Positions 14,656 through 63,885 of a stretch of DNA of 64,000 bases are shown in pieces. The stretch lies in contig JBPOHQ010000007.1 of NCBI GenBank assembly GCA_052035405.1, positions 12,292 to 76,291 on the forward strand. Reading direction: 5' to 3'. Positions within the stretch are counted from its first letter, which is position 1. Each line of letters opens with the position of its first letter. This DNA is from Candidatus Nomurabacteria bacterium. Its GTDB lineage: Bacteria > Patescibacteriota > Minisyncoccia > Phycocordibacterales > UBA9973. The notes beneath the pieces were generated by a model that was not told where the DNA came from, did not search any database, and was given only the letters and a program-made list of their open reading frames with translations. The translations under genes and the position numbers were made by a program.

Positions 14656-14727
14656 GTTTGTATTATACTCTTTTTTGAAAAACTGAGAAAGTGTTTAAGT
14701 TATTATTTTGATATAATTAAGTTGTAT

Positions 14728-15819: not shown

Positions 15820-15877
15820 AGAAGGTTCTTGTGTAGAATCTTCTTAAGAGTATAATATGAGTAACTATTATATATAG

Positions 15878-17230: not shown

Positions 17231-17235
17231 AAAAT

Positions 17236-21060: not shown

Positions 21061-22368
21061 TTATTTTAACTCTTTTAAGTGTTCGAGGAGTTTGCTTAGT
21101 TTAACTGTGTTTTGGGACCTATTAGACATATCTCTTACTATGACAGTGTTGTCTATTGCTTCTTTTGCACCAAAGATGAGTGCATAAGGAACTGCTAATT
21201 TTTCAGCTATAGCGAGTTGAGCACCAAGAGAATCTTTTGAGAGGGATTGAGCTATTGGTATGTGTGCTTTACGGAGAATCTCTATCACATTGAGACTTTT
21301 AAGTTTGGCTTCACTTCCTAATTGGATAAAGTATATCTTTGGTTTTTTCATGATTCGTGGAGCAAGTTTTTTGTACCAAGGAGAAGCGACAATACGGTCT
21401 ACGCCGATTGCCATCCCTACTGCTGGAACATCTTTCTTTCCACCGACTTGTTTTGCGAGATAGTCATAGCGTCCACCTCCGGCAATTGATAGAGGTGTAC
21501 CATCTTCACCACCTTTTTCTTCTATAACTTCAAATACTGTACGAGTATAGTAAGCGAGTCCTCGAACGAGATTTTTATTAATATTGTACTGGATACCCAT
21601 TTCTTCTAAGTATTCCAACACCTCCTTAAAGTGTTTCTTGCAAGATGGGCATAGGAAACTAATAGAGTCTGGTGCTCCTTCGTTGATTTCTTTTGTTTTC
21701 TCTTCTTTTGAATCAAGAATTCTAAGAGGATTTGTCTTTAATCTTTCTTTGTCTATCGCGGGGAGGGCAGAGAGATTCTTTTTATAGTAGTTTGTTAGTT
21801 CTTTGAGGTATCCGTTACGGCATTCTTTGTCCCCAATTGAATTTATATCAATAGAAAGATTCTCTGCACCAGCTTCTTCGAGAATACTCATACCTGCCTT
21901 TATTACAAGTGCGTCCATGATACTTTTATCACTACCTAATGCATCTAGGTCAAATTGATAAAATTGTCGGTAACGTCCGCGTTGAGGTTTATCATGTCTA
22001 AAAGATGGGCCGTATTGATAGAACAACACTGGTTGAGGGAGAGATTGCATCCCGTGTTCTATGTATGCACGCATTAAAGATCCAGTGTGTTCAGGTCGGA
22101 GTGCAAGCACATCGCCACCTTTTGTCTTTAGAATATACATTTCTTTATCTACTATATCTGTACCATCTCCTACACCACGAGAAAAAACTTCTTCGTGTTC
22201 CATCATTGGGGTCTCGATAGGTTTAAATCCGTAGTACACAGCGACTTCTTGAGCTTTCTCAAAGAAACCTTGGAAACTGTAGTATTCTTCATTTTTTATA
22301 TCACGCATTCCTTTTGGAGATGCGACTTCTCTCGCTTTATTTTCTTTTTTAGGTGTTGTTTTACTCAT
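21061..22368 (-). CDS. hisS: Histidyl-tRNA synthetase (native copy)
   Basis: Class II motif 2 FRHDKPQRGRYRQFYQ; C-terminal anticodon-binding domain. Confidence 0.9.
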   Translation of the reverse strand: MSKTTPKKENKAREVASPKGMRDIKNEEYYSFQGFFEKAQEVAVYYGFKPIETPMMEHEEVFSRGVGDGTDIVDKEMYILKTKGGDVLALRPEHTGSLMRAYIEHGMQSLPQPVLFYQYGPSFRHDKPQRGRYRQFYQFDLDALGSDKSIMDALVIKAGMSILEEAGAENLSIDINSIGDKECRNGYLKELTNYYKKNLSALPAIDKERLKTNPLRILDSKEEKTKEINEGAPDSISFLCPSCKKHFKEVLEYLEEMGIQYNINKNLVRGLAYYTRTVFEVIEEKGGEDGTPLSIAGGGRYDYLAKQVGGKKDVPAVGMAIGVDRIVASPWYKKLAPRIMKKPKIYFIQLGSEAKLKSLNVIEILRKAHIPIAQSLSKDSLGAQLAIAEKLAVPYALIFGAKEAIDNTVIVRDMSNRSQNTVKLSKLLEHLKELK

Positions 22369-40300: not shown

Positions 40301-40640
40301 TGCCGTAAAAGATCCAAAGATTTTTGAAAGTGTGTTGCCAGGACTTGTAATCGAGCAAGTTATTGAAGAAAATGAACCTACTCCTTCAAAGGTCATTCCA
40401 ACTCAAAACTCAACACCAGATGAAGCAATAATAGAAGAAACATCAGTATCCGAAGAAACAAATGAGACTATCGGTGCTCCAGAAGTTTTTGATACAGCAG
40501 AAACACCAGAACCTTCAACAGTTACAGATACACAAGAAAATCTAAATGCACAGGTGACAGAAGTTCCTGCAGTGTCTACTTTCAAAGAGACAAGAGCAGT
40601 AGAAATGAGTAATGCACCAGAGACTTTGATTGCGGAGTAG
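34383..40640 (+). CDS. Giant (2085-aa) membrane-anchored tail-fibre-like surface protein with an internal peptidase-S74 intramolecular-chaperone (IMC) domain
   Basis: N-terminal transmembrane helix; recurring [14 protein letters not shown](S/E)I motifs (fibre-type repeats); IMC domain [23 protein letters not shown]...[12 protein letters not shown] at 39201-39600; a further ~340 aa follow. Confidence 0.8.
39201..39600 (+). other. Peptidase S74 / 'chaperone of endosialidase' intramolecular-chaperone domain (internal)
   Basis: DLAELY...GDVVAIH...[13 protein letters not shown]...GRVPVKV pattern. Confidence 0.65.
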
Positions 40641-48715: not shown

Positions 48716-48778
48716 TGACTTTTAATTTTAATTTTGTTATATTCTATCAATGTCATTATCTATAGGCATTGTATGAAC

Positions 48779-48869
48779 GCAACACGACATATACCCGATA
48801 AGGTTATTCCTTTCTATTTCACTATTAAATTACCACCGCCTTTAGTTAGAGGGGTGGACTATGGATTCA
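48779..48869 (+). repeat. Copy 1 of a ~91-bp direct repeat (caacacgacatatacccgat...ttcactattaaattaccac...tttagttagagg...tatggattca)
   Basis: About 90 % identical to 57851-57943 by eye, same orientation. Confidence 0.8.
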
Positions 48870-48893: not shown

Positions 48894-49838
48894 CTAAAAT
48901 TTTAATTTATAATTAAATATAAATTTATTACTAGAATATTTTATCTCACCACCTATAGGTATAATATTTATCGGGTGAGTGTGTCCAAAATCTACATTTG
49001 CCACAATAGGAATATTTTTTAATGCCATTTTATTTGCAATAATACTCTCCAGATCTTCTTTATTTATATTTGAATCTGTATCAAATCGGCCAATGACCAA
49101 AGCTTTGATCTTGTTAAAGTTGGGTTGTAAGGTTAATGTCTCTAACTGTCTATCAAACTCTCCCTTATCATCCAATGAATAGTGATCCCACTCAATAAAT
49201 AAAACTTTATCAGTTAAGTTTGGAAAAAATTCCGTACCGAACAAAAGACTAAAGCTAGGTAAATTTCCACCCACAGCAATTCCTGAAAAGTCACCTGGAT
49301 TAATGCTCCATAAACCTGAATTATCAATAATTTCTCTTTTTTCTCCAAACAATGCGCCGTAATACTTATCACTTACCTTAGCTTCATAAGATTCTTCTTG
49401 TTTTAAGGCAGCAGATAGACTGTCGGTGGTATTTGGTAAAAGAAGTGATGAACACAACCATCTGTAATTTATTCCCAGATATGATGTTAAACCGGTTTTA
49501 GTAAATATAGCATTACAAAGAACTGTAACATCTGAAGCGCCAAAAAAAGGCTTAGGATTGTTTTTAACTAGATCCCAATTTATATTAGAAAGTATTTGAT
49601 TTGAATTCGTCCCCCCATGATAGGCCATTATTAAATTCACCTCCTTATCTGACCATGCATCATTCCAGTCAGAGATTCGTTTTTCTATTGTTGTAGACAC
49701 CCCTTCTATTCCTTCTACATTTTTCCCGTACAAAACATTAAAACCCTCATTGTTAAGGAGACCTTCTGCAATATTTAATGTATTTTTGTGTCTCTCAAGC
49801 AAGGGGCTACTTGGAGCAATAATTTTTATGTTTTTCAT
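48894..49838 (-). CDS. LD-carboxypeptidase (peptidase S66, MccF/LdcA family)
   Basis: IIAPSSP, IMAYHGGTNSNQIL and PKPFFGASDVTVL motifs. Confidence 0.65.
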   Translation of the reverse strand: MKNIKIIAPSSPLLERHKNTLNIAEGLLNNEGFNVLYGKNVEGIEGVSTTIEKRISDWNDAWSDKEVNLIMAYHGGTNSNQILSNINWDLVKNNPKPFFGASDVTVLCNAIFTKTGLTSYLGINYRWLCSSLLLPNTTDSLSAALKQEESYEAKVSDKYYGALFGEKREIIDNSGLWSINPGDFSGIAVGGNLPSFSLLFGTEFFPNLTDKVLFIEWDHYSLDDKGEFDRQLETLTLQPNFNKIKALVIGRFDTDSNINKEDLESIIANKMALKNIPIVANVDFGHTHPINIIPIGGEIKYSSNKFIFNYKLKF

Positions 49839-49933: not shown

Positions 49934-50953
49934 ATGAATAAAAACTCAAAATGGGCAGTAATAATATTATCATTAATTGCATTAATAGCTGTGTCAGGAT
50001 TCTTGTTCTCTGGTATAAAAACAAAAGAAAATACTCAGGTAGAGTCTCCTGAAATAAGAATAGGATGGCAAACACCCTGGGCCACCCAAGGACAATTGGT
50101 TCAAGTCTTGAAACACACCCAAATTTTAGAGAAACATAATGTAAGAGCTGATTTTAAAGGATTTACTTATGGTGGGCCACTAAACGAAGCCGCACTTGCA
50201 GGAGAAGTCGACATGATTCTAACCGCTGATCAACCAGCTGCAACATTACTATCAAAGAATGAAAATTGGACTATCATTGGAAGACTTATGTACAACAGGG
50301 TTTCTTTGTATGTGCCCCCAATGTCTCCAATACAAAATGTTTCAGATTTGAAAAATAAAACTGTAGCCATGCCTTTCGGAGCTGCCGCACAAAGAATGGC
50401 ATTAAAAGCAGAGGAAGATGCGGGTCTTAACCCAAACACAGATGTGAAGAATATTAATTTGGGTATCTATGAACAGTCTGATCTTATTCGTGATCCCAAT
50501 GCAAAGAAATGGGGCGATATAGATGCCATGGCAGGATTTGATCCACTTCCAGCGATTTTTGAAGAAAAGGGGTTAACCAGGAATTTAGGTGTTGGCAAGA
50601 TTGTATCTGTGATCCTAGTAAACAATTCAGTTTTGGAGAACAATCCTGAAGTCGTAACAAATTTCCTGAGTGCTTTTACTGATGCATATGATTATTATAG
50701 AACTAATGTTCAAGAAGCAGATGCTTGGTTTGTAGAAGAATCAGGTTTAGATATTACCCCTAAGGCGCTGGAAATCTCAGCAAGCCTTGAGCCAAATCTA
50801 AAAGTTAACAGTAAAGATGAAATAAGGATTGATTTTAATGATGAAGATTTTGCCATCATGCAGGAAGCAGCTGATTTTATCTTTAACCAAGGTCTAGTTG
50901 ATAAAAAGGTAGAGATGAAAAATTTTGTTAACACGACATATATCAAAAAATAA
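49934..50953 (+). CDS. ABC transporter substrate-binding protein (NMT1/SsuA/TauA family)
   Basis: N-terminal anchor; IRIGWQTPWATQGQL...LTADQPAA. Confidence 0.65.
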   Translation: MNKNSKWAVIILSLIALIAVSGFLFSGIKTKENTQVESPEIRIGWQTPWATQGQLVQVLKHTQILEKHNVRADFKGFTYGGPLNEAALAGEVDMILTADQPAATLLSKNENWTIIGRLMYNRVSLYVPPMSPIQNVSDLKNKTVAMPFGAAAQRMALKAEEDAGLNPNTDVKNINLGIYEQSDLIRDPNAKKWGDIDAMAGFDPLPAIFEEKGLTRNLGVGKIVSVILVNNSVLENNPEVVTNFLSAFTDAYDYYRTNVQEADAWFVEESGLDITPKALEISASLEPNLKVNSKDEIRIDFNDEDFAIMQEAADFIFNQGLVDKKVEMKNFVNTTYIKK

Positions 50954-50959
50954 AACTCT

Positions 50960-52096
50960 ATGAAAAAAAATCTTATATTAATATCACTTGATACTTTAAG
51001 AGCAGATGTCGGATATAGTGGCAGATTCCCAACAATAGAGAATCTTCGGAAAAAATCAGTTTCTTTTCTGAATACAATCTCATCTGCCCCAATCACACCC
51101 ATCAGTCACGCTAGTGTGTTTACTGGATTACAGCCTTACAATCATGGAGTAAGACATTTGTTTAAGGAAAAACTAAACCTTAAACACAAAACTCTTGCTG
51201 AGTTATTAAAGAAGCAAGGTTACGACACCGCAGCCATTGTATCCTGCCCTGGGATGAATAAATGGTATGGATTATCAAAAGGTTTTGATTATTACAACGA
51301 TGAAATTCCGAGACTTCCAGATGGCACAGACCCACTAAAGACCGTAGATGTTAAAAAGAGAGGTTCTGCTTTAAAAAGAGCTGACGTCGTAGTCGACAAG
51401 GCCAAAGAATGGTTTTCTAAAAGGAAGTCAAAAAAACCTTTCTTCCTGTTTCTTCACTTTTTCGACACACATTGGCCATATGAAGCACCTGAAATATACG
51501 GTGGAAATAATATTTACGAACAAGAAGTAGCTTATGCTGATTATCACCTAGGAAAGTTTCTTGAGTATGTAAAGAGTGTGGTGAATCTAGACGACACAAC
51601 AATTGTATGTTTTTCTGATCACGGTGAAGATTTAGAAGGATTGTATCCAAACGACAAAGGAGGTAAAAAACTTGGACATCCTGAAGAATCTGGTCATGGT
51701 TGTTTGCTCTATGACCAAACTCAAAAAGTGATGCTAACTTTTAGTGATAAAAGTTTACCTAAAAATAAAGCTTTAAATAATCAAGTTCGACTGATTGACC
51801 TCACGCCAACTGTCTTGGATTTATTAGGAGTAAAAACTAGTTCAATTAAATTTGATGGTGTTTCTTTGCTTCCGGTCATCAAAGACAAGAAAAATATTAC
51901 ACCTGTGGCATATTCAGAAACCTTTTACCCAGAGGAGCAAAATCAATCTACAAATAATAAGTATCCAAATGCAAAGAATAAAAAATCTATTAGGATAGAC
52001 AACAAATATAAAGTCATCTTTAATCTAGAGAGTGACTTAATAGAGGTCTATGATCTAGAAAAGGATCCGAACGAGCAAAATAATCTTTTTCTGTAA
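50960..52096 (+). CDS. Alkaline-phosphatase-superfamily enzyme, NPP/type-I phosphodiesterase-like
   Basis: ILISLDTLRADV...SAPITPISHASVFTGLQPYNHGV resembles NPP (Thr-nucleophile region TFPNHYSIVTGLYPESHGI). Confidence 0.55.
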   Translation: MKKNLILISLDTLRADVGYSGRFPTIENLRKKSVSFLNTISSAPITPISHASVFTGLQPYNHGVRHLFKEKLNLKHKTLAELLKKQGYDTAAIVSCPGMNKWYGLSKGFDYYNDEIPRLPDGTDPLKTVDVKKRGSALKRADVVVDKAKEWFSKRKSKKPFFLFLHFFDTHWPYEAPEIYGGNNIYEQEVAYADYHLGKFLEYVKSVVNLDDTTIVCFSDHGEDLEGLYPNDKGGKKLGHPEESGHGCLLYDQTQKVMLTFSDKSLPKNKALNNQVRLIDLTPTVLDLLGVKTSSIKFDGVSLLPVIKDKKNITPVAYSETFYPEEQNQSTNNKYPNAKNKKSIRIDNKYKVIFNLESDLIEVYDLEKDPNEQNNLFL

Positions 52097-52108: not shown

Positions 52109-53452
52109 ATGTTGGATCAGAATAAATTTTGCAATACTGAAGATCTGGTTAAAGCTGTTCAGGAGATGAGCGGGCGCGCAAAGGCGGCGAATTGCGAAAT
52201 TATTTATTTCATAGAGTCCGGTGGCCTCATGCTTAAAGACATATTCATGTCGCTTAAAGACAGGAGTGGTTTCAATGCTTCTGGTGTTGTATCTAGCAAG
52301 GTTACAGCACTAACTAAAATTCCATTGAGTTATCAAATAAAAGGTCTGTTAACTGAAGAAGAAATTAACTCAAAAATTAGCATCAATCAGATAGAAAAAA
52401 TAAGAGAAGTTATTCAGGTAAGTAAGTTTAATAACAAGGAAGATATTGTTAAATTATTCACCAGTGACCATGTCCCAGAAAAATCCCTAGGCGTTATTAT
52501 AGACACATTAACCATGTTAGGCGAAGTGTCCCCAGTAATAGAAAACAATAATAATACATTTTTTAAAGACGACACAAAGTTTATCCAGACAAAGGAAAAA
52601 TTGCTGAGTGAACGTATTAAAGCGCTTCCAAATATAAGACATGATATTCGCCCTATACTGAATATTCTTTTAGAAAATACATCTTTTGCTAAAAAGATTA
52701 GTGGGAAGAAAATTTATGTAATAGACGAAGCAACTAGCAGAGGTCGGGCTCTGTGGTCCATTGAAATAATACTAAAGGCTTTTTGCTCTAGCGCGGTCTG
52801 GAAGATTGGGGTTATTTACAGCACAGCACCAGTCAAATCAAGTGAATACATTGACTATATTTTCAGTAGCACTAAACCACCACTACTAACAAACCGTCCA
52901 GATGTATTGGGTGTTATAGTGGCAAAAGATGAACAAGTTGGATTCAAAAGGAATGAAATTAATGGTCTACTAAACCATCTGGCTTATGCGGAGTTTGATC
53001 ATTTGTCATATGATACAAATCTACAAATCATTCACAAAAAAATTGAATCCATATCGACTAAATTTCAAATATCCTCTTCTTTGTCGACAGATCAAAAACT
53101 AAAACTAATAAACTTTTGGATAAATTGTAATGTTAAAGAGCACTTTGAAGAATGTTTGAATCTGAACCTAGTAAGTTGTACTGGAATAATTGAACAAACA
53201 TCATTTTATTTATGCGCACCGAATCCTTTTGCAGACATTAAAGAAAGAGAATCCTTTAAGAAGGAGTCGCACAACTTCCTAGATAAACTACTAGAAATTT
53301 ATAATGATCCAGAATATTCAGATGAATTTAATAGCATTAAGGAAAAACTAATTCAGGCCAAAAAGTCGATAAATTTAAAAGAGTTAACAGATTGGCAAAA
53401 CAATAGGAACAATTTCCTGAAAGAAATCAATCAATTTATTAGCGTGATATAA
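52109..53452 (+). CDS. Hypothetical protein (447 aa)
   Basis: ORF; GC-rich 5' patch; weak PRTase-like IYVIDEATSRGRAL. Confidence 0.35.
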   Translation: MLDQNKFCNTEDLVKAVQEMSGRAKAANCEIIYFIESGGLMLKDIFMSLKDRSGFNASGVVSSKVTALTKIPLSYQIKGLLTEEEINSKISINQIEKIREVIQVSKFNNKEDIVKLFTSDHVPEKSLGVIIDTLTMLGEVSPVIENNNNTFFKDDTKFIQTKEKLLSERIKALPNIRHDIRPILNILLENTSFAKKISGKKIYVIDEATSRGRALWSIEIILKAFCSSAVWKIGVIYSTAPVKSSEYIDYIFSSTKPPLLTNRPDVLGVIVAKDEQVGFKRNEINGLLNHLAYAEFDHLSYDTNLQIIHKKIESISTKFQISSSLSTDQKLKLINFWINCNVKEHFEECLNLNLVSCTGIIEQTSFYLCAPNPFADIKERESFKKESHNFLDKLLEIYNDPEYSDEFNSIKEKLIQAKKSINLKELTDWQNNRNNFLKEINQFISVI

Positions 53453-53454
53453 TA

Positions 53455-54867
53455 ATGATTATGAAAAAAGAAAACAAGTATGACCATATAATCCTCGTTT
53501 CATTAGACACACTTAGAAACGACTGTATTACAGCAAACAAAGAAAATTTTGTTAAAAAGATGTTGGGTAAAAAAGCCTTTAAGACGGAAAAAATAGACCA
53601 ACTCATTAAAAAAGGAGTTTACTTTAGAAACTGCATTTCGGCAGCTCCGTATACTTCTGCTTCTCATACCGCTTACTTCACCGGCGTGTGGCCAAACCAA
53701 AATGGTGTATATGAATTTTTTAATAGAAAAATCGCTCGACCAACTATTTTTAAACTGGCAAAAGAAAGCGGTTTCCACACCATATTTCAGACAGACTTTC
53801 CTATCATTCTAGGAGAAAGTCTAGGGTTTACTGATGGTGTAGATGATTATTTTATTGAAGACGAAAAAAGTGCTTTTAAAAAACTACAGACAGCATCAAA
53901 AAACAAAAAAACAGTATCATTCTTTCATTTTGGGGGGATACACTATCCATATGGTTTCCATAAGATAAAATTTGCTAAAAAGGATTTCCCAAACAAGGTT
54001 AAGGCGTTAGAAAAAAAATATGGACTAAAACCAAACACTGATGCACCAGACATGCTGGATGAAAGTTTTCGTGACGATAGAGATAAAGAATATTTACTCA
54101 GATATAAATCTATTGTTGACTATCTGCACTCCGAATCTAAATATGAAGATTTGCTACAGCTCTATCTTGAGGGATTGGATTATTTTTTGAAAAATAGATT
54201 CAATTCTTTTTTTGATAAATTAATTAACTTTGTTGATAAAAATAACGCCCTACTTGTTGTATTTGCGGATCACGGTGAGAACTGGAACGAAAATTCACGA
54301 GGACATTCTAATTCGGTGGATGATGAGGTGTTAAGAGTTCCATTAATATTCTATGGTAAAAATATTCCAAAAAATAAAAAGATAGCTGAACTTGTCAGAA
54401 CGATAGATGTTATACCTACGGTATGTGAATATACAGACATAAAGAAGGTTGGATTTAGTGGTAAACCAATAGATCTGCAAAACATTAAATCTTTTAAATC
54501 GAAGCGAGATGCTTATTCACAAGTATGGAGAGTTGGAGACAAGCGCAAAATATATGAATTTCAACAGAAGATTTTAAAAAATAAAAAAATGTATAGTCCA
54601 TTAAAAACTAAACTAGAGAAAGAGTCAGTGTATGCTAATGAATACTCCTTAAAACGTAAATATCTTGAAAATGGCAAAATAGAGGAAGTCTTGTTTAAAA
54701 ATACAGGAGAAAAAATTGAACCAATGAAAGCGAACGAAAAAATCTCTTCAAAATTAAGAAAGCTTCTGTCGGAATACAATAAAAAAAATAAATTTGTTGG
54801 TGAAAAAATAGATGAGATTCCTACAGAGATTGCCAATGGATTAAAATCTATGGGTTATAATGTCTAG
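53455..54867 (+). CDS. Second alkaline-phosphatase-superfamily / NPP-like phosphodiesterase
   Basis: IILVSLDTLRNDC...SAAPYTSASHTAYFTGVWPNQNGV. Confidence 0.55.
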   Translation: MIMKKENKYDHIILVSLDTLRNDCITANKENFVKKMLGKKAFKTEKIDQLIKKGVYFRNCISAAPYTSASHTAYFTGVWPNQNGVYEFFNRKIARPTIFKLAKESGFHTIFQTDFPIILGESLGFTDGVDDYFIEDEKSAFKKLQTASKNKKTVSFFHFGGIHYPYGFHKIKFAKKDFPNKVKALEKKYGLKPNTDAPDMLDESFRDDRDKEYLLRYKSIVDYLHSESKYEDLLQLYLEGLDYFLKNRFNSFFDKLINFVDKNNALLVVFADHGENWNENSRGHSNSVDDEVLRVPLIFYGKNIPKNKKIAELVRTIDVIPTVCEYTDIKKVGFSGKPIDLQNIKSFKSKRDAYSQVWRVGDKRKIYEFQQKILKNKKMYSPLKTKLEKESVYANEYSLKRKYLENGKIEEVLFKNTGEKIEPMKANEKISSKLRKLLSEYNKKNKFVGEKIDEIPTEIANGLKSMGYNV

Positions 54868-54946: not shown

Positions 54947-56239
54947 ATGGGCAAACAGAAAGTACCCTCGGTTAAAGGCATGAATGACATTCTGCCTGAG
55001 AGGCTACGCAAAATGCAGTTTGTAGAGAATCTGCTACTGCAACTTAGCTACAACTATGGGTACTTGCAAGTTAAGACCCCATCAGTTGAGCATGCGGAGC
55101 TGTATACACGTACATCGGAATTTTCGGAAGAGAAGAGCTATCCGGTCATTGATCCGAAGGATCGTGGCCTAGTGCTCAAAAACGACCCGTGTGCACCTTT
55201 GGTTCGCTTGGCGATAGAAAACCTTGTAAACAGGCAACCAGCCCCTTATAAGCTGGTGGCTTGCGATAGTATCTTTCGCTCGACGAACCGCAGGCGTCGA
55301 GAGTTCCGGATGTTCAATTTGGCCTGCTTTGGCGTTCCTGGGTCTATGGCTGACGCCGAGATGCTACGACTTCTGGTCGATTTCTTTGAGGCTCGAGGGC
55401 TTGTGGGTTGCAAAATTACTTTCAACAACCTGCAGCTTTATACCTCCTTGCTTTCCAAAGAAGTTGATGATCCTGAAAAGGTTGGTTCCATATTGCATCA
55501 GATAAGATTTGCAACGGATTTGAAAGCTGTGAGAGAAATACTTACAACTTCACAAGTTTCTGAGCCAATTGGTTCGGTTATATTGCAACTCTGGTCTGGA
55601 ATACAAGGTACCGCTGAACTCATGAGGATCGCTGATTCTTTAGAATGCAATCCATTTACTGAGGCAGTTGTACATCTTGAAGCATTTGAAACAATGTTAC
55701 AAAGCCATGAATTGAATCTTGCGATATTGAATACTGCAAATCTTCACGGCACCGGCTTTTACTCGGGTCTTACGTACAAACTGATTGCACCTGGTGAAAA
55801 AGGTCGTGAAATTGCCGACGGTGGCAGATATGACGACATGTTCACTCAGCTTGGTGGAGTTGGTATGGGTGCTTGCGGAATTGGGTTAGGCATTGAGCGA
55901 CTGGTTGAAATACTAGAAAGCTATGGTTGCCAAACTCAGGAATCAACCACTTGCAAGAGTGTGTTTGTGATTAATGAATTGGACCGTGAATCTTTTGCAA
56001 AATGGTCCAAGACGATCCGCAAACTTCGACTTGAGGGTTTCAAGATTGAGGAAGATCTTTCCCAAAAGAAATTCCAAAAATCTTTTGCCAGAGCAAAGTT
56101 ACTTGGCTACGACCTTGTTTTGGTCATGAGACCTGCCGGTGACAGCATTACAGTACAAATTATCGATGCTAGCACTCTTTTAGTTAGAGAGTTAACAATT
56201 GATAACGAAGCTGAGCTTTATTCTCTTCTTCAAGGGTAA
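54947..56239 (+). CDS. Histidyl-tRNA-synthetase paralogue (HisRS-like, degenerate motif 2; HisZ-like or auxiliary aaRS), conspicuously GC-rich
   Basis: GMNDILPE...; motif 3 GGRYDDM...GIGLGIERL; C-terminal HGTP-anticodon-like domain; local GC (~45-50 % by eye) well above surroundings. Confidence 0.65.
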   Translation: MGKQKVPSVKGMNDILPERLRKMQFVENLLLQLSYNYGYLQVKTPSVEHAELYTRTSEFSEEKSYPVIDPKDRGLVLKNDPCAPLVRLAIENLVNRQPAPYKLVACDSIFRSTNRRRREFRMFNLACFGVPGSMADAEMLRLLVDFFEARGLVGCKITFNNLQLYTSLLSKEVDDPEKVGSILHQIRFATDLKAVREILTTSQVSEPIGSVILQLWSGIQGTAELMRIADSLECNPFTEAVVHLEAFETMLQSHELNLAILNTANLHGTGFYSGLTYKLIAPGEKGREIADGGRYDDMFTQLGGVGMGACGIGLGIERLVEILESYGCQTQESTTCKSVFVINELDRESFAKWSKTIRKLRLEGFKIEEDLSQKKFQKSFARAKLLGYDLVLVMRPAGDSITVQIIDASTLLVRELTIDNEAELYSLLQG

Positions 56240-56302: not shown

Positions 56303-57070
56303 ATGAAAATACCATTTAATATTAAATTAATAATAGTACTGCTATCCATAACGCTTCTTATACAAGTGGTTTTTTTGCTTTTTCCTGAATGGTCTACGGT
56401 TTTACCTCAACCTCTTGAGGTAATTAAGGTAGGCGTAAATGAATTCTCGTCCGGAAATATTTTTATTGATATTTTAGTTAGTCTTAAAAGAGTGACAGTT
56501 GGTTTTCTTTTGGCGACAATTATCGCAATACCACTGGCGATATTTAGCGCCCATCATAAGATTGGTAGATATTTAGTTAATATAAACGAATTGTTACGAC
56601 ATATACCGCCAATAGCCTGGATACCTGTGGCCATAGTTTTTTTTGGCCTTGGAGATGCTTCCGCATTTTTTATTGTTTTCTTGGGTTCCTTTTTCCCAAT
56701 TTTTTTAAATACTTTTTTTGGAGCTAATAGTCTGCCCTTGGTGTATATCAGAGTTTGTCAGTCATTTGAGTTACCGAAAATGGTTTATATGAAAGATATA
56801 CTATTCAAATTCTCATTGCCATATATTTTTACAGGCTTAAGGATAGGTATAGGCATGGCATGGATGAGTGTTATTGCTGCAGAGTTAGTTGGTGCTCAAT
56901 CTGGGCTTGGCTATTATATACAATTCAATAGGCTACTTTTGCATATGGATAAGGTGGTTTTTGGAATGCTTTTGATTGGTTTAATAGGTTTATCTTTAAA
57001 TAAATTAATAAAGTTACTAGAGAAAAAGGTGCTGGTATGGGTGCCTTCAAATCACCATGATAGAAATTAA
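56303..57070 (+). CDS. ABC transporter permease (SsuC/TauC-like)
   Basis: Six transmembrane segments; EAA-like loop. Confidence 0.75.
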   Translation: MKIPFNIKLIIVLLSITLLIQVVFLLFPEWSTVLPQPLEVIKVGVNEFSSGNIFIDILVSLKRVTVGFLLATIIAIPLAIFSAHHKIGRYLVNINELLRHIPPIAWIPVAIVFFGLGDASAFFIVFLGSFFPIFLNTFFGANSLPLVYIRVCQSFELPKMVYMKDILFKFSLPYIFTGLRIGIGMAWMSVIAAELVGAQSGLGYYIQFNRLLLHMDKVVFGMLLIGLIGLSLNKLIKLLEKKVLVWVPSNHHDRN

Positions 57071-57773
57071 AAACATATCTCATAAATACAAAAGACAAAA
57101 TCAAAATATATTAAATGATATAAATTTTAATATTTCTGATGGAGAATTTGTTACTATTGTCGGAAAATCTGGATGTGGTAAATCAACACTCTTAAACATT
57201 ATTGCCGGATATATAAAACCAACTAACGGAAAGATATTTATTGAAGAAAAAGAAGTAAATAAGCCCGGCAAAGATAGGATTGTAATTCATCAAGGATATG
57301 ACCATTTTGATTGGATGAGCGTCGAAGATAATTTGTTATTAGTAAACAAAGATAAGTCTGTAGTTTATGGATTATTATCAAAAGTAGGACTTGAGGATAT
57401 GCACGATGCATTTCCGCACGAACTTTCTGGCGGAATGAAGAAAAGACTATCTATAGCCAGAGCCTTGGCAGCTGATCCTAAATTCTTGATTATGGACGAG
57501 CCATTTAGTTCACTGGATCATAAAATCAGAAGCCAGATCTATAAAGAAGTTTCGGCCTTAACCAAAGAACTAAATAAAACTGTTTTGTTAGTGACGCACG
57601 ACTTAGATGAAGCAATTGAATTGTCGAATAAGATTATTATTTTGTCTGGTGGCTCAACCACAGTTCATGAAGTAATCTATTTAGATAGACACAATCAATA
57701 TAATGACCATTCAAAGTTTTTGGATCAAATATTTAATTTAAAAAATCAAATAAAAAAATTGATTGAAGATTAA
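57057..57773 (+). CDS. ABC transporter ATP-binding protein
   Basis: Walker A GKSGCGKST; signature LSGGMKKRLSIARAL; Walker B LIMDEP. Confidence 0.85.
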   Translation: MIEIKNISHKYKRQNQNILNDINFNISDGEFVTIVGKSGCGKSTLLNIIAGYIKPTNGKIFIEEKEVNKPGKDRIVIHQGYDHFDWMSVEDNLLLVNKDKSVVYGLLSKVGLEDMHDAFPHELSGGMKKRLSIARALAADPKFLIMDEPFSSLDHKIRSQIYKEVSALTKELNKTVLLVTHDLDEAIELSNKIIILSGGSTTVHEVIYLDRHNQYNDHSKFLDQIFNLKNQIKKLIED

Positions 57774-57850
57774 TAAATTATTTTCTACTTGAATTTTCTT
57801 AAGAAATAAGTAATAGTAAGGGGATGAGTTTAAGTATCGGAATGGCGTGA

Positions 57851-57943
57851 GCACAACACGACATATACCCGATCAAGTTATTCCTTTCTATTTCACTATT
57901 AAATTACCACCTCCTTTAGTTAGAGGGATGGATTATGGATTCA
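57851..57943 (+). repeat. Copy 2 of the ~91-bp direct repeat (see 48779-48869)
   Basis: Seen directly. Confidence 0.8.
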
Positions 57944-58032: not shown

Positions 58033-59088
58033 ATGAGAACAATTCTTATTACTGGTGGCTGTGGCTTTATTGGAGCAAACACGGCAGAGTACTATCTAAC
58101 TAAAAAAGGCTATAAAGTTGTTGTGCTAGATAATCTTTCAAGAGTTGGTTCTAAGTATAATTTACAATGGCTAAAAAAAATTAACGGTAACTTTGTTTTT
58201 CGAAAAATTGACATAAGGGATTACAAATCTTTACTTGTAATATTTGAAGAAGTTAAGCCTGACTTAATTCTACATTTAGCAGGACAAACCACGGTAACTG
58301 GTTCCATGGTAAATCCAAGAGAAGATTTTGAAATTAATGCTGTTGGTACTTTTAATGTTTTAGAAGCCCTTAGAAATGGCGCACCTAAGGCTACCTTGAT
58401 TTACTCTAGTACAAACAAAGTAATGGGCGAACTAGCAGACATGCCTATTCGAGAAGAAAAAAATAAATATTCTTTCAAGAACATAAAAGGTATTTCTGAA
58501 AAACAGCCATTAGATTTTTGTAGCCCATATGGTTGCTCAAAAGGTTGTGGTGATCAATATGTTTTAGATTATGCAAGAATTTATAAATTAAACACTGTCG
58601 TTTTTAGGCAATCATGTATTTATGGTTCAAGACAATTCGGCATAGAAGGACAAGGGTGGCTTGCCTGGCTCATGAGTTCTTTGATTTTTGATCAGGCTGT
58701 ATCTTTATATGGTACGGGCAAACAAGTTAGAGACATTCTGCATGTTAGAGATTTAATAAGTGCTTTTGATTTAGCTTTTAAAAATATTAAAATAACTAAG
58801 GGCAAAGCTTATACTATTGGAGGAGGTCCAAATTTTTCTGTCTCTATTTTAGAATTCTTTGAAATCCTAGAAAATATTTCTGGTAAGAAGTTTAACTACA
58901 AGATGAAACCTTGGAGATTGGTAGATCAAAAAGTCTATATTTCCGATGTGTCTTCGGCAAGTAAAGATTTTAATTGGATACCAAAAGTGAGTCCAAAAGA
59001 AGGTATAAAAGATATGTATGATTGGGTTTTGCAAAATAAACAACTTATAGATAAATCTGGTATTTTAAATAATAAAACAAAAAAATAA
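58033..59088 (+). CDS. NAD-dependent sugar epimerase/dehydratase (SDR family)
   Basis: ILITGGCGFIGAN; YGCSK (YxxxK). Confidence 0.8.
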   Translation: MRTILITGGCGFIGANTAEYYLTKKGYKVVVLDNLSRVGSKYNLQWLKKINGNFVFRKIDIRDYKSLLVIFEEVKPDLILHLAGQTTVTGSMVNPREDFEINAVGTFNVLEALRNGAPKATLIYSSTNKVMGELADMPIREEKNKYSFKNIKGISEKQPLDFCSPYGCSKGCGDQYVLDYARIYKLNTVVFRQSCIYGSRQFGIEGQGWLAWLMSSLIFDQAVSLYGTGKQVRDILHVRDLISAFDLAFKNIKITKGKAYTIGGGPNFSVSILEFFEILENISGKKFNYKMKPWRLVDQKVYISDVSSASKDFNWIPKVSPKEGIKDMYDWVLQNKQLIDKSGILNNKTKK

Positions 59089-60009
59089 TTGCTACTGATC
59101 ATGGAAAAAGGACCCGAAAGAATAATAAATATCGATATAAAATGTCTACAAATTGACAGAGAAAATTTAGAATCCCAGCTTAAAAAAATTTCAGAGGTTC
59201 TATTAAAAATATCAGAAGACGATCGTTTCGATACCTTCTCTCACTTTGCAACACTTGCCGACATTTCAGACAGTCAAAGTGTTGATCCAGTAAATAGTGT
59301 GGAATTGTTAGAAAACTGGGACTATGAAAGTATGGATTTTATTAAAAAAGAGAAAGCAGGAAACTGTGTTGATTTTGCAGTCTTGTGTCAAAAAATGTTA
59401 GCAGATGTTGGAGTGCCCACAACAATAATTGGAAGACTGGCAGAAGAAAAAGATTATACACCAAGACAAGCCAGCTTTTTAAAATATAGACACGTTGCTC
59501 CTATGTATGCAAATGAATCAAACGGGTTAAAATTATTTGTATTGGAACCAAGTTGGAAGTTTTCTGAACCAGTACCAATTGCATTAGGTGTACCTTCTAT
59601 TTATAAAGACTGGGTATCTGAGGTAACTAATATCAAAGGTGTAAATTTTTCCCAAAAAGCATTTAATCCAGTAAAGAATAAACGCAGAGAAAGATTGTAT
59701 GATATTCATCCACTTGATATAGACTACTGCTGTCAACTAACTAAGCGTTTTATCCGAGTGCCTAGAGAATTAAAAATATTGAATACAAAAAACGAAGAAA
59801 TTATTCAATTCGTTAAATTTGACGCTAAGAAGCAGATATTTGTCACAAATATAGAGGGTGTGGGTTCTGAGTTTTTACCTGACACAATTAGTGGGGAGCA
59901 ATCAAGAGTGTTAGAAGAAGTTTTGGGAAAGCCTGAATTAACCACTTATCTATCTAAAGTTTTTAATTTCATACAATCATTACCGAATGATTTTTGGATA
60001 AAAGATTAA
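59089..60009 (+). CDS. Transglutaminase-like (Cys-His-Asp) domain protein (tentative)
   Basis: GNCVDFAVLCQKMLADVGVPTTIIG...RHVAP. Confidence 0.4.
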   Translation: MLLIMEKGPERIINIDIKCLQIDRENLESQLKKISEVLLKISEDDRFDTFSHFATLADISDSQSVDPVNSVELLENWDYESMDFIKKEKAGNCVDFAVLCQKMLADVGVPTTIIGRLAEEKDYTPRQASFLKYRHVAPMYANESNGLKLFVLEPSWKFSEPVPIALGVPSIYKDWVSEVTNIKGVNFSQKAFNPVKNKRRERLYDIHPLDIDYCCQLTKRFIRVPRELKILNTKNEEIIQFVKFDAKKQIFVTNIEGVGSEFLPDTISGEQSRVLEEVLGKPELTTYLSKVFNFIQSLPNDFWIKD

Positions 60010-60027
60010 TAATTAATTTAACAATAT

Positions 60028-61224
60028 ATGAAAATATGTATTTACGCTCATAGTTTTCCGCCTATTATTGGTGGTGCCCAGACTTACCAATATAATTTAG
60101 CTATCGGTTTAGGTAAGCTGGGTCACGAGGTGTTAGTTTTAACAGGTGAGATTCCCAATTCTTTAAAACCGAAGATTAAAGATTATAAATCGCCTTATTT
60201 TAAAGTTGTTAGAGTTCCTGGTTTTCGTGAATCCATTAAAATGAAAGCACCTTTTAGAGATTTACTAATTGATTCGTTTAATATTTTAAAAAAGTTTGAC
60301 CCAGACATCATATATTCAAATGGATTTATCCCTTGTTTACTTATTTCTATGATAAAAGATGGTTTGCGTGCTAAACATATTTTTAGTTATCATTCTACTC
60401 CAGAGTTGGATGTAAATAAGCTTGTCGGTATTTGGCCTGGAAATTTAGAGTTTGAGTTATCAATTGCTAGATATATTTTTAAGCAAAGGTCTTTTGATGC
60501 TTATTTAGCATGTAGCAATAACTATCTTAATACTGTAAAAAGTAGCGTTGATGCAAAAATAAAAAACGCACACCGTATTTATTACGGCGTAGACATGAAA
60601 AAGTTTTCTTTTGAGTTAAAAGTTAACAGAGAAAAACATGGCTTCAGTAACAGAGATTTTATTGTTCTTTGTCCGGTCAGACTTATTGAAAGAAAAGGCA
60701 TTCTGGATATTTTAAAAGCATTTAGCATATTAAAAAAAGAGATTCCAAATATTAAACTTTTAATTCCTACGAGCAAGCTTTCTACAAATGATAAATTTGC
60801 TCAATCAATTTTAATATTGATTAAAAAGTTAAAAATACAAAATTATGTTTCAATAAGACCAGATGAGTTTACTATAGAAGACATGCCTAAGGTTTACGCT
60901 CTTTCAGATATAATGGTTTTTCCTTCATATTCAGAAGGGTTGGGCATAATATCTCTAGAAGCAATGTCTATGAAAAAACCAGTAGTTGCTACAAACATTC
61001 CTGGAATTAACGAGGTCGTTATACATAACAAAACAGGATTATTAGTAGACATAAAAAATCCTAAACAGATTGCTGAATCAATAAAGTTGCTATATAAAGA
61101 CAACGATTTACGAGACCGTCTAACTAAAAATGCGTACTCTATGATTCAAAAAGAGTTTGAATTAAATAATCAAGTTAAAAAAGCTGAAAAGCTTTTTGTT
61201 GCAGTATATGGAAAAAATAAATAA
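60028..61224 (+). CDS. GT4-family glycosyltransferase
   Basis: FPSYSEGLGIISLEAMSMKKPVVATNIPG (EX7E region). Confidence 0.8.
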   Translation: MKICIYAHSFPPIIGGAQTYQYNLAIGLGKLGHEVLVLTGEIPNSLKPKIKDYKSPYFKVVRVPGFRESIKMKAPFRDLLIDSFNILKKFDPDIIYSNGFIPCLLISMIKDGLRAKHIFSYHSTPELDVNKLVGIWPGNLEFELSIARYIFKQRSFDAYLACSNNYLNTVKSSVDAKIKNAHRIYYGVDMKKFSFELKVNREKHGFSNRDFIVLCPVRLIERKGILDILKAFSILKKEIPNIKLLIPTSKLSTNDKFAQSILILIKKLKIQNYVSIRPDEFTIEDMPKVYALSDIMVFPSYSEGLGIISLEAMSMKKPVVATNIPGINEVVIHNKTGLLVDIKNPKQIAESIKLLYKDNDLRDRLTKNAYSMIQKEFELNNQVKKAEKLFVAVYGKNK

Positions 61225-61831
61225 AACTCTAGCAAATAAAATTAAAAAGTACATAAAAAGCACTAGACATCCATTAATTGTTTTAATCTCTGGTATCAAT
61301 GGAGTGGGTAAAACAACAGTGGCTTTTAATTTGTCGAATCTTTTGGATATAAAGCAAAGAGTTGGGCTAGGTTCAATAGTAAAGACTCTTATCTCAATCG
61401 ATCCAAAGAATAAAGATTTTTATAAGATGGATAATTATTTCACATCTTCTATTAAGATGAATGAATTAAAAAAACAGTCTTTAGTTATAAGTAAGTCAGT
61501 AAATCTAATGATAGAAAAATATAGCGTTGGGGGAGTTTCTTGTATTATTGAAGGTGTCCAGTTGATACCGAGATATTTGGTTGGTAATACAATTCAATTT
61601 TATATACAAATCACTGATTCAAAAAAGTACAAACAACGGTTAGAAATTTGTGACACTAGAACTCCTCGCATTGTTTCTGAAAAAGAATTTAGTAATTTAC
61701 TAAAACTGAATCAGCTTCTAGAGAAAGAAATGAGTAAGAGTAAAGTGTGTGTTTTGGATGGTTCAAAGTCTTTGGTTGCAATTATCAACGAAATGTTGGA
61801 AAATATAGCTATTAATCTTAATTTAAAGTAA
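61196..61831 (+). CDS. P-loop NTPase/kinase-like protein
   Basis: Walker A GINGVGKTT. Confidence 0.45.
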   Translation: MLQYMEKINKTLANKIKKYIKSTRHPLIVLISGINGVGKTTVAFNLSNLLDIKQRVGLGSIVKTLISIDPKNKDFYKMDNYFTSSIKMNELKKQSLVISKSVNLMIEKYSVGGVSCIIEGVQLIPRYLVGNTIQFYIQITDSKKYKQRLEICDTRTPRIVSEKEFSNLLKLNQLLEKEMSKSKVCVLDGSKSLVAIINEMLENIAINLNLK

Positions 61832-61839
61832 TAAAATTT

Positions 61840-62823
61840 ATGTCTATTGAATTCTCTGAGTTAAAACAACTATCAAAAGAAGCAAGAGATGCCTCGAATA
61901 TACTTAGAAAAGAGCTTGGAGAAATGCCACATAAAATCAAAGGCAATTTCATTGCTTTCTTTGGTCGTCAATTTAATCCTGATTACAAATGGAATAGTGC
62001 CTTAAAACCATTATGGTCTGGTTTTTATATTAAATATAATGATTTGGAAATGATGGTAGATCCCGGGATAAATATTTTGGAAAGGGCAGAAAGAATAGGT
62101 GTTAATTTGGCACTCACAAATACTTTGTTTATCTCTCACGGACACATAGATCATGGTCATGATGCAAATGTGATTGCTGAAATGGCTGCTTATAGGGAGA
62201 ATTCCAAACTGCGAATATTAATGTCTGAGTGCACACAAGAAGAGAAAATAATGAGCCATTATCATTCTCAGTCTCAAGATGGAACTGAACTTATTTTAAT
62301 TGATAAATCGAAGGGAATTGATTTAGGAAATAATATTAAATTAAAGCCAGTAGAAGTATTGCATACAATCGGAGGATCCTTTGGCTTTGTCCTTGATTTA
62401 CACGGATTAACAATTGGATATACAGGCGATACTGGTTTTAACGCAACATATAAAACCACTGACGGTAGAGAACTCCCTGCTTTTGGTAAAATTCCAGACA
62501 AAAAAGAAATTGAAGAACCGGGAGCTTTTAACGAGGAATTGAAGAAAGTTTTTAGTGACCTGGATATGTTGGTTTTCAATTTGCATGATGTTGAATTCAG
62601 AAAACACACTAAACATAATTTGTATCATTCTACTGTATCTGATGCCGTGGAAGTTCTACAGGGATCCAAAGTCAAGCATTGTTTTTTTGAACATTTTAAT
62701 CCTCATGGATGTCTAGGCGTAGAGTATCCACAAAAAGTGAATCAGTATATAAAAGAAGTTAGTGGCAAAGAAACAACACTTGTTGCCTTAAATGGACATA
62801 TTGTTAACCTAGATAATATTTAA
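61840..62823 (+). CDS. MBL-fold metallo-hydrolase
   Basis: SHGHIDHGHD (HxHxDH). Confidence 0.7.
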   Translation: MSIEFSELKQLSKEARDASNILRKELGEMPHKIKGNFIAFFGRQFNPDYKWNSALKPLWSGFYIKYNDLEMMVDPGINILERAERIGVNLALTNTLFISHGHIDHGHDANVIAEMAAYRENSKLRILMSECTQEEKIMSHYHSQSQDGTELILIDKSKGIDLGNNIKLKPVEVLHTIGGSFGFVLDLHGLTIGYTGDTGFNATYKTTDGRELPAFGKIPDKKEIEEPGAFNEELKKVFSDLDMLVFNLHDVEFRKHTKHNLYHSTVSDAVEVLQGSKVKHCFFEHFNPHGCLGVEYPQKVNQYIKEVSGKETTLVALNGHIVNLDNI

Positions 62824-62825
62824 TT

Positions 62826-63885
62826 ATGCCTAGCGAAACACCTAAATTTTTTGTTGATAAGGTTAGAGAACAAAAAGAAGGTGACCCTCATCCTTATGAT
62901 GCTTTAATTCATGTCGAAAAAGATACAGAACGAATGGGTTTCGTGCAAGATAATTTTGTTTGTGAGGTGGTTAACGAAAAAGGCCAAGAATCAACGATAA
63001 GATTTCCTACCGCAATAACTTATTTTAAAAATGAAGGTTCTAAAAATTGGTCAAAAAAATTATATGGCTATAAAGAATCAGTTCAAGAGGCCTTAAGTTC
63101 AGAAGAAATGAATTATTATGTTGTTTATGACCCAACCTCTGAGTTAAGTTTTTTAGCGATGCCTTTTGATAACAATACTCAAATAGCACGATGTAGAGAT
63201 AATTTAAACTTGTTTTTAAAAAATGGAAAACTTGAAGACAAAGAATCCTTATTAAAATTAATATCTGAATTTAAAGGTGTAGATTTCGGGTTATTTGGTT
63301 CTAGATTTATAAAAAATTATGATCAACCAACAAAAATATCAGATATAGATTTGATAATTTATGGACCAGAAGATTTGCAAAAAGTTGTTGATTCTCTTGA
63401 AATGGATGAATCATTAAGAAAAAAAGTTGGTGTTAGTTTTAAAGATTCAAGTAGATTTGAGCAATATGTGCAATATTATATGAAAAAATTTAACCTGACT
63501 GAGGCCGAGGCAAAAATTATGTTTACAAGACGAAGACGTTATATGCTTAACCCAGGTATTAAGTTTTCAATTAATTGCGCATTACCACATAACGATACAA
63601 ACAGAAAAATACCTATAACCGTGGGCTCAAAAAAAAATACACGATATTTCAATAGAAGGTACAGCCTTAGATACTTCTCTGTCTTCAAATTTACCAAGAG
63701 TTTTTTCTGTGGAAAGTGAGGGACAAAAAATTGATATAGTAACTGGTATTTGGTCATTAAAGGATTTTATTAGGACTGGCGATAAGGTAAAAGTAACTGG
63801 AGCATTGAGAGAATCAGATGGTGTGACTTTTATCTCTTTAGAAAAACCAGGAGATATTATTATACCAATAGCCAATGAGAAATAA
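62826..63885 (+). pseudogene. Pol-beta-superfamily/LicD-like nucleotidyltransferase-fold protein interrupted by a frameshift at an A9 tract (63629-63637); 62826-63719 plus the +1 frame to TAA 63883-63885
   Basis: GLFGSRFIKNYDQPTKISDIDLII (GS...DxD); the +1 frame is closed upstream of the A-run and open for 82 codons downstream with protein-like sequence. Confidence 0.5.

Follow-up and report, generated by a model that had tools for sequence, protein, structure and literature searches.

A histidyl-tRNA synthetase-like protein family encoded in a conserved importer operon of Candidate Phyla Radiation bacteria

The 64,000 nt stretch analysed here (referred to as the window) originates from a Candidatus Nomurabacteria bacterium (GenBank assembly GCA_052035405.1, contig JBPOHQ010000007.1, positions 12,292 to 76,291 of the forward strand). 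It contains two genes of the histidyl-tRNA synthetase (HisRS) family. One is a housekeeping hisS gene at 21061-22368 on the minus strand. The other, an open reading frame (ORF) at 54947-56239 on the plus strand, encodes a HisRS-like paralogue and is the subject of this report. It is located in a conserved operon for an ABC importer, and the family to which its product belongs is named class C. The ORF is intact: It starts with ATG, ends with TAA and encodes a protein of 430 aa composed of a catalytic core, a helical insertion and an anticodon-binding-like domain. The Pfam family tRNA-synt_His (PF13393) spans its whole catalytic region (E = 1e-35), and HGTP_anticodon yields a weak match. An AlphaFold2 model for which 26 members of the family served as input (predicted local distance difference test score, pLDDT, 87.7) displays the complete HisRS architecture, with a beta-alpha-beta C-terminal anticodon-binding-like domain at residues 339-429. 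Foldseek aligned about 440 columns of this model to full-length HisRS, and the archaeal HisRS 1wu7 of Thermoplasma was the best match in sequence as well as in fold. Identity amounts to 24% with the housekeeping hisS product of the window and to 21-27% between class C and real HisRS. With the NCBIfam model TIGR00442 (hisS), the window protein scores 190.4 bits and other class C members 200-210 bits, all below the cutoff of 286.75. With TIGR00443 (hisZ), the window protein scores 145.2 bits, below the cutoff of 271.65. Therefore, it passes as neither. Comparison with the orthologue of locus L011 revealed purifying selection (nonsynonymous divergence dN 0.10, synonymous divergence dS 0.82).

The active site was mapped over 49 class C sequences, with residues numbered as in E. 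coli HisRS (hisS from NC_000913.3). In all 49, R113 of motif 2, F125, Y264, the GGRYD stretch G285-D289, G304 and R311 of motif 3 are kept. Invariant changes are E83D, Q127M, R259H, D262G and Y263F (R259 to H in 49 of 49 sequences, Q127 to M in 48 of 49). Other positions vary: T85 is replaced by D, N or C and E115 by W, R, T or Q, and E131 is variable, with A in the window protein. In the genuine HisZ proteins (3od1, L038) the pattern is reversed; they have kept T85, Q127 and E131 and lost R259 and R311. The window protein contains motif 3 (GIGLGIERL), GGRYD and the motif 1 Pro. Its motif 2 has kept the Arg and lost the acid two residues further on, and the class C motif 2 loop is three residues shorter than that of canonical HisRS. 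The initial annotation, made from the DNA sequence alone, had described a second, divergent HisRS-family gene with motif 3 and GGRYD retained, an anticodon-binding-like C-terminus and a degenerate motif 2. Domain match, identity values, structural model and motifs agree with this description, except that in motif 2 the degeneration concerns the acid and spares the Arg. Arg259 is a HisRS-specific catalytic residue. In E. coli HisRS, the same R259H exchange reportedly cuts activity about 1000-fold, a result attributed to Arnez et al. in 1997. Taken together, class C has retained the fold of HisRS along with its nucleotide site and motif 1 for dimerisation; its pocket for histidine, carboxylate and alpha-phosphate is conservatively remodelled. 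Since this pocket is re-tooled, we infer that class C no longer acts as a histidine-tRNA ligase.

The class C gene belongs invariably to an operon for an ABC importer of the NMT1/SsuA type and cytoplasmic phosphodiesterase-like enzymes, which in most lineages encodes a HisRS, too. Gene maps were drawn for 28 loci. The order in this cassette is substrate-binding protein, alkaline-phosphatase-type (AP-type) enzyme, (NIF3), a protein designated UNK, AP-type enzyme, HisRS, class C, permease and ATPase. In variant cassettes, class C is followed by a further AP-type enzyme together with either a Mom-family protein, two S-adenosylmethionine (SAM) methyltransferases or a nucleotidyltransferase. In the window, all genes of the cassette are on the plus strand. 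The conserved first gene (49934-50953) encodes the secreted or lipid-anchored, NMT1/SsuA-like substrate-binding protein of the importer (Pfam NMT1, OpuAC and Phosphonate-bd; TIGR01728, 115 bits). It is followed by a first cytoplasmic alkaline-phosphatase-superfamily enzyme with the motif TPISH...FTG (50960-52096; Pfam Sulfatase 1.8e-37, Phosphodiest 2.6e-14), which is present in 18 of the 28 loci, by UNK (52109-53452) and by a second such enzyme with TSASH...FTG (53455-54867; Sulfatase 2.3e-20, Phosphodiest 3e-9). The T-x-x-S-H...TG nucleophile motif of both 'sulfatase' ORFs is that of the nucleotide pyrophosphatase/phosphodiesterase (NPP) type. Downstream of class C lie the genes for the permease (56303-57070; BPD_transp_1), found after class C in 23 of 28 loci, and for the ATPase (57057-57773; ABC_tran, E = 5.5e-34), present in 22 of 28. 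The nucleotide-phosphodiesterase-like neighbours named in the initial annotation are thus supported by the Pfam matches and the nucleophile motif. The block is an operon of uptake or scavenging type, in agreement with the scavenging part of that annotation.

In about 24 of the approximately 27 loci that are informative for this adjacency, a HisRS gene precedes class C at a distance of 0-30 nt. These cassette-linked enzymes, termed class B, pass the hisS cutoff with 356-371 bits and belong to the eukaryote/cyanobacterial/Bacteroidetes type. Without an adjacent HisRS gene are the window and locus L006. In the closest relative of the window, the sister contigs L011/L043 (class C 82% identical), the class B HisRS gene is found two genes upstream of the cassette. 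The hisS gene of the window, which lies outside the cassette and served as comparator, is of the E. coli type, termed class A. It scores 410 bits with TIGR00442, has kept all HisRS active-site residues and is situated in an fmt-def-hisS-lepB context with dnaE close by, so that its assignment as the native hisS was correct. Its product shares only 22-29% identity with the HisRS enzymes linked to the cassette at other loci. In the regions covered, even close relatives show different HisRS types: The window has the E. coli type, and the sister contigs have the eukaryote/cyanobacterial type beside the cassette (L011 638-1957, L043 2282-3601). These enzymes are 24% identical to each other, although the cassettes share about 85% protein identity.

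Further genes at the cassette concern histidine or its tRNA. In the Buchananbacteria loci, a tRNA-His(GUG) gene directly follows the cassette ATPase gene (L015 5214-5291, L034 5236-5312), and genes for HIT, S51 and S66 proteins come next. In both tRNAs, G-1 and C73 are genome-encoded. A role of class C in Thg1-like G-1 addition was considered and rejected, as no need for it is evident when the linked tRNA already encodes both nucleotides. Two lineages have a gene for a hutH-like (histidine) ammonia-lyase next to the cassette. Upstream of the cassette, no T-box or other leader belonging to an Rfam family was found at gathering score in ten loci. In L035, Rfam detects a group I intron just upstream of the binding-protein gene (4940-5200; 52.6 bits, gathering score 50), a place where no rRNA or tRNA gene was detected.

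The accessory genes of the cassette are diverse. UNK is a 447 aa protein that is conserved in the loci of subtype C1 (see below) and has no match in Pfam, NCBIfam or PDB. Its invariant motifs are FFPEAGG, SSKxTA, HDxRP..NI and YVxDEAxSRGR. It is very rare: A search of 1.84 billion proteins gave 14 representatives at E<=1e-30. The central region of UNK is also found as one part of large fusion proteins, together with domains of the PfkB kinase, ARMT1-like phosphatase, HAD and SIS type, which hints at a possible involvement in phosphosugar or nucleotide chemistry. Its AlphaFold2 model is poor (pLDDT 54.8), so that its Foldseek matches are meaningless. The YVxDEAxSRGR loop and a beta-alpha-beta pattern had suggested a type I phosphoribosyltransferase; this candidate was dismissed after an hhalign comparison with E. 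coli Gpt (probability 1.6%). In L028-L032 (e.g. L031 6446-7774), UNK is replaced by a 442 aa protein with similarity to the Mom family of phage Mu (PF25680, E = 1e-12), and distant homology between UNK and the Mom-family protein was likewise rejected (hhalign probability 0.7%). Pairs of SAM methyltransferases occur in L017 and L035, and a nucleotidyltransferase occurs in Saccharibacteria. The class C pocket follows this division. Subtype C1, encoded in cassettes with UNK and NIF3, has T85D, E115W and E131S/N. Subtype C2, encoded in cassettes with the Mom-family protein, methyltransferases or the nucleotidyltransferase, has T85N and E115R and has kept E131. The window pocket is the most derived version, with C, T and A at positions 85, 115 and 131. 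The parallel between pocket subtypes and the set of accessory enzymes suggests that the ligand is a metabolite connected with the cassette.

Among 5.8 billion proteins searched, 26 class C relatives with 25-82% identity were found, which are without a Pfam anticodon-domain match; those with a named source come from the Candidate Phyla Radiation. Beneath them, ordinary HisRS followed at <=27% identity. In 185,579 species genomes and JGI metagenomes, class C was found only in genomes of the Candidate Phyla Radiation (CPR) and in metagenome contigs; the loci come from Gracilibacteria-labelled genomes, Paceibacterota, Buchananbacteria, Saccharibacteria and Moraniibacteriota. The same scans returned a few weak outliers. 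Among them is L038, a true HisZ with hisG directly downstream. In a neighbour-joining phylogeny (411 columns, 100 bootstraps), class C and class B HisRS are each monophyletic in 100 of 100 replicates, and the two HisZ sequences in the tree group together in 99. A clade of class C and class B was never obtained (0/100). Class C thus appears as a monophyletic, CPR-restricted family that is derived from HisRS and distinct from HisZ as well as from both HisRS classes, A and B. As a side observation, a metagenome-assembled genome of Polyangia, outside the CPR, contains a HisRS gene followed by a very divergent HisRS-like ORF (L019 8120-11185; 81 bits with the hisS and 77 bits with the hisZ model). 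It joins the base of class C at 86/100 and could be an independent or an ancestral case.

The initial annotation had also offered a HisZ-type protein, i.e. the regulatory subunit of the short-form ATP phosphoribosyltransferase. Three class C members (P0006, P0011, P0111) carry the public name 'ATP phosphoribosyltransferase regulatory subunit', class C shares the features LRxD...AP and REF with HisZ 3od1, and the tree weakly unites class C, the Polyangia outlier and HisZ (66/100). However, the hisZ score lies far under its cutoff, as given above, class C plus HisZ alone, with two HisZ sequences in the tree, reaches 6/100, and the residues kept and lost by HisZ (T85, Q127 and E131 against R311) are the reverse of those in class C. 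Furthermore, a tblastn search with E. coli HisG, D, C, B, H, A, F and I over the window and all loci (481 kb) found no his gene beside any class C. Its sole match was the hisG gene next to the genuine HisZ of L038, which means that the method did recover a true pair. To our knowledge, CPR bacteria lack histidine biosynthesis. The assignment to HisZ is therefore largely refuted and highly improbable, and the public name is probably wrong.

What class C does instead can only be proposed. Our preferred, tentative interpretation is that of a non-aminoacylating accessory subunit which binds a ligand or tRNAHis and couples a histidine-related importer module to tRNAHis charging. Class C would bind a nucleotide together with a histidine-related metabolite and might hold tRNAHis through its retained anticodon-binding-like domain. 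In the histidine-auxotrophic bacteria that carry the cassette, it would then connect the import and processing module with the charging of tRNAHis. This logic would be comparable to sensing by HisZ for HisG or by the HisRS-like domain of GCN2, although in another family and with another partner. In support, the monophyly and CPR restriction of the family, the conserved gene order with the HisRS adjacency, the tRNA-His genes, the hutH-like neighbour, the residue pattern, the pocket subtypes, the purifying selection and the full anticodon-binding-like domain in the model can be listed. Both the binding or sensing role and the link to histidine supply are deduced from sequence and context and are to be taken as provisional. 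Several observations weigh against this interpretation. Kept ATP-site arginines beside a changed pocket for the amino acid are what neo-functionalised enzymes like EpmA/PoxA and AsnA display, whereas the pure sensors HisZ and GCN2 have, unlike class C, lost these arginines. The window and L006 have no adjacent HisRS, and the HisRS of the window is of the other type and encoded 33 kb away; therefore, an obligatory complex of HisRS and class C is not universal. NMT1/SsuA-type binding proteins are not known to bind histidine. Finally, the proposed function assigns no role to UNK, NIF3 and the AP-type enzymes, which it leaves unexplained.

The main rival is a neo-functionalised enzyme which uses ATP, or the His-tRNAHis made by its neighbour, to ligate or transfer histidine or another carboxylate to a non-tRNA acceptor of the cassette. 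This is possible, though on balance rather doubtful. Models for it would be EpmA/PoxA, AsnA, amino-acid:carrier-protein ligases and aminoacyl-tRNA-dependent transferases. The motif 2 Arg, the adenine-stacking Phe and the motif 3 Arg are invariant in class C, and the two true HisZ are without the motif 3 Arg. The pocket is too conserved for decay, with an invariant H267-G-T/S-G-F-Y-S-G segment and M122. In addition, its subtypes co-vary with the methyltransferase pairs, the GNAT-like Mom-family protein and the nucleotidyltransferase, and class C is tightly linked to HisRS and, once, to tRNA-His. On the other hand, the motif 2 acid (E115) is lost, and R259, which in HisRS takes the place of a catalytic metal, is replaced by His. 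Neither an acceptor nor a carrier protein or a product can be identified, and the operon is centred on an importer with its binding protein, not on an exporter or a biosynthetic core. Two further alternatives, jointly unlikely, are that class C senses the status of tRNAHis or of histidyl-adenylate (His-AMP) as an adaptor in complex with HisRS and thereby gates or feeds an importer-based salvage in auxotrophs, which would make it a prokaryotic, free-standing counterpart of the GCN2 HisRS-like domain, or that it is a His-tRNAHis-dependent transferase which builds a histidine-containing metabolite.

In the window, the cassette is part of a block bounded by repeats. Two 114 nt direct repeats, 88% identical, are located at 48756-48869 and 57830-57943 and enclose exactly the cassette and the gene of an S66 serine peptidase, which corroborates the repeat-bounded island that had been predicted. 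Repeat search, alignment, tblastn and translation revealed that both copies on the plus strand begin with an eight-codon remnant of the 5' end of ychF, which reads MSLSIGIV* in the left one (feature 48750-48869) and MSLSIGMA* in the right one (57824-57943). The remnants differ in their serine codons (TCA/TCT against AGT). The synteny with the sister contigs L011/L043 breaks at the right copy. These contigs carry an intact ychF (GTPase gene) after the ATPase gene, and the helicase and class B HisRS genes before the S66 gene. The ychF remnants in both repeats together with the intact ychF of the sister contigs therefore argue that the block was relocated in the lineage of the window, in a way that would resemble a Campbell-type integration. 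No integrase or transposase domain was found by Pfam among the block genes. Structured RNA in the 114 nt repeat was considered and discarded: One of the four folds of strand and copy has z = -2.4, and the others are at about -0.3. To the right of the repeat, at 58033-63719, a separate run of genes follows that is not part of the conserved cassette of the other loci. It encodes a NAD-dependent epimerase/dehydratase, a transglutaminase-like protein, a GT4 glycosyltransferase, a P-loop kinase-like protein, an MBL-fold hydrolase and an unassigned ORF.

The S66 gene (48894-49838, minus strand; Pfam S66 and S66C) is an accessory neighbour of the cassette. Among PDB entries, its product matches the 'MccF-like' proteins Lmo1638/BA_5613 at 1e-58, MccF at 1e-27 and LdcA at 1e-7 to 1e-13, so that it is closer to MccF-like proteins than to LdcA, in line with the MccF family named in the initial annotation. 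S66 genes are found beside the cassette in three lineages (window/L011, L015/L034, L017) and are absent from the others with enough flank. These data bear on the idea that class C is a second working HisRS which is insensitive to an antibiotic and forms a resistance module against aminoacyl-nucleotide toxins together with the MccF-like S66 peptidase and HIT proteins, or that it sequesters such toxins as a decoy. The MccF-like clade of the peptidase fits this idea, S66, S51 (PepE-like) and HinT-like HIT genes recur downstream of the cassette in 2-4 lineages each, and a decoy that binds adenylate analogues is conceivable with a nucleotide site that is kept. However, the catalytic and histidine-binding residues are invariantly changed, with Arg259 always His and Gln127 Met, and the score falls under the hisS cutoff. 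A second working HisRS is also opposed by the overall pattern, in which fold and nucleotide site are kept and the amino-acid pocket is conservatively re-tooled. S66 and HIT genes are missing from most loci, whereas importer and HisRS are constant. Known resistance copies of aminoacyl-tRNA synthetases (aaRS) keep their full catalytic signatures. A resistant or auxiliary working HisRS is therefore improbable. The S66 peptidase together with the NPP-like enzymes may lend the locus a flavour of scavenging or, less likely, of detoxification.

The base composition of the class C gene is strongly atypical, as had been noticed from the sequence. Its GC content is 0.443, compared to a mean of 0.340 for the other 47 ORFs of the window. 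At third codon positions (GC3), the value is 0.420 against 0.251 (standard deviation 0.031; z = 5.4). At first positions (GC1) it is the highest among all 48 ORFs, and at second positions (GC2) it is above most others. Amino acid usage is shifted as well: The residues F, Y, M, I, N and K make up 0.25 compared to 0.32-0.42, and Arg reaches 6% compared to 2-3.5%, about twice the content of the neighbours. The GC rise is confined to 54947-56239 and begins and ends at the ORF borders. The excess is real and not a chance fluctuation. A structured RNA or a tRNA as its source was rejected, since neither an Rfam match nor a tRNA was found in the window and the rise covers the whole ORF.

On the basis of this composition, the initial annotation had argued for horizontal acquisition of the gene, which lies in the island. 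Only a part of this argument can be upheld. Class C is the sole GC-rich gene of the block; the other block genes have a GC3 of 0.25-0.31, near the window mean, so that the block as a whole lacks the foreign composition of a genomic island. Moreover, the L011 orthologue, which resides on a contig without the repeats, has a GC3 of 0.415 even though the genes flanking class C have diverged between the two with dS 1.2-1.6. Since the excess is precise to the gene and shared with L011 despite this divergence, it does not reflect a fresh transfer of the island, and a recent acquisition of class C together with the island is not supported. The position of class C in the window is exactly the one that it occupies when this operon is found in other CPR lineages. 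An old replacement of the single gene is conceivable: The resident copy would have been exchanged for a xenologue whose CPR donor had a higher GC content, at a time before the lineages of the window and of L011 diverged. We regard this as possible and yet more doubtful than not. The joint shift of GC3, GC1 and amino acid usage with sharp borders at the ORF ends would fit. So would the GC3 of only 0.22 in class C of the AT-rich Saccharibacteria, since it means that the family does not require GC-richness, and the observation that in several further AT-rich loci the GC content of class C exceeds that of the surrounding genes, often jointly with the adjacent HisRS. What speaks against a xenologue is the equal GC3 in two lineages with such diverged flanks; under neutral amelioration, the donor would, by our estimate, need a GC3 of at least about 0.75. 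In addition, the within-family affinities of class C parallel those of the flanking permease and ATPase, and no donor lineage is found among the sampled genomes. Lineage-specific selection is a possible alternative cause.

Elsewhere in the window, two giant ORFs at 2271-10232 (2653 aa) and 34383-40640 (2085 aa) combine high GC2 with very low GC3 and contain internal repeats, among them D1 (132 nt, at 7794 and 8841) and D7; a local GC peak of 0.48 is found at 8-9 kb. The region 14638-19167 encodes a GDP-mannose-type nucleotidyltransferase followed by two GH130 mannoside-phosphorylase-like proteins, the second with a duplicated GH130 domain. Here, a 66 nt motif (GGTTGTGAAGATCC...) is repeated at a spacing of about 1 kb (D3). 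The stop codons of the 48 window ORFs are TAA (36), TAG (10) and TGA (2), and one TGA is part of an ATGA overlap. An alternative genetic code, considered on account of the 'Gracilibacteria' label of the closest public relative, was rejected, as the ORFs are uninterrupted under table 11.

Class C can be compared with several known systems. With HisZ (TIGR00443; 3od1, 1z7m, 5m8h) it shares the status of a HisRS paralogue that presumably does not aminoacylate, the LRxD-x-x-AP and R-E-F features and the likely role of a binding or regulatory subunit for proteins encoded nearby. In contrast to HisZ, class C has kept the motif 3 Arg and the anticodon-binding-like domain, has lost T85, Q127 and, in the subtype of the window, E131, all of which HisZ keeps for histidine sensing, and is associated with an ABC importer and HisRS instead of HisG or a his pathway. 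Canonical HisRS (TIGR00442; Thermoplasma 1wu7) is similar in the three-part fold over about 440 columns, the motif 1 Pro, the motif 2 Arg, GGRYD and the motif 3 Gly and Arg. It differs by R259H, Q127M, D262G and Y263F, the loss of T85 and E115 in class C, and 190 bits against a cutoff of 286.75. The HisRS-like domain of GCN2 and SLIMP, a SerRS paralogue paired with SerRS2, are catalytically altered aaRS paralogues that have kept a tRNA-binding architecture and act as sensor or partner of the translation apparatus. The presumed co-transcription of class C and HisRS recalls the pair of SLIMP and SerRS2. However, class C is bacterial and free-standing, has no kinase and keeps the nucleotide-site arginines; the likeness would extend to a possible mode of working with putative tRNA binding and not to membership. 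In lactobacilli, the clusters for histidine decarboxylase (hdc) contain an extra hisRS next to a histidine transporter (PMC5313534). There as here, a histidine aaRS-family gene lies within a locus that serves or may serve histidine transport or utilisation, but the hdc clusters encode a normal HisRS and an antiporter, whereas class C is divergent, is linked to an ABC importer and belongs to a different phylum.

Full-text literature searches found no earlier description of the class C family, and in a 2022 review on the duplication of aaRS, HisZ is the sole bacterial HisRS paralogue listed (PMC9437257). Class C would represent a second, independent case in which the scaffold of HisRS was put to another use, with a pattern of retained sites opposite to that of HisZ. 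It is confined to the CPR/Patescibacteria, host-dependent bacteria that, as far as we know, are unable to make histidine. Its misnaming can wrongly imply histidine biosynthesis in metabolic reconstructions of the CPR. The conserved operon offers a concrete starting point for testing in which way the import of nutrients is linked to translation in ultra-small symbionts.

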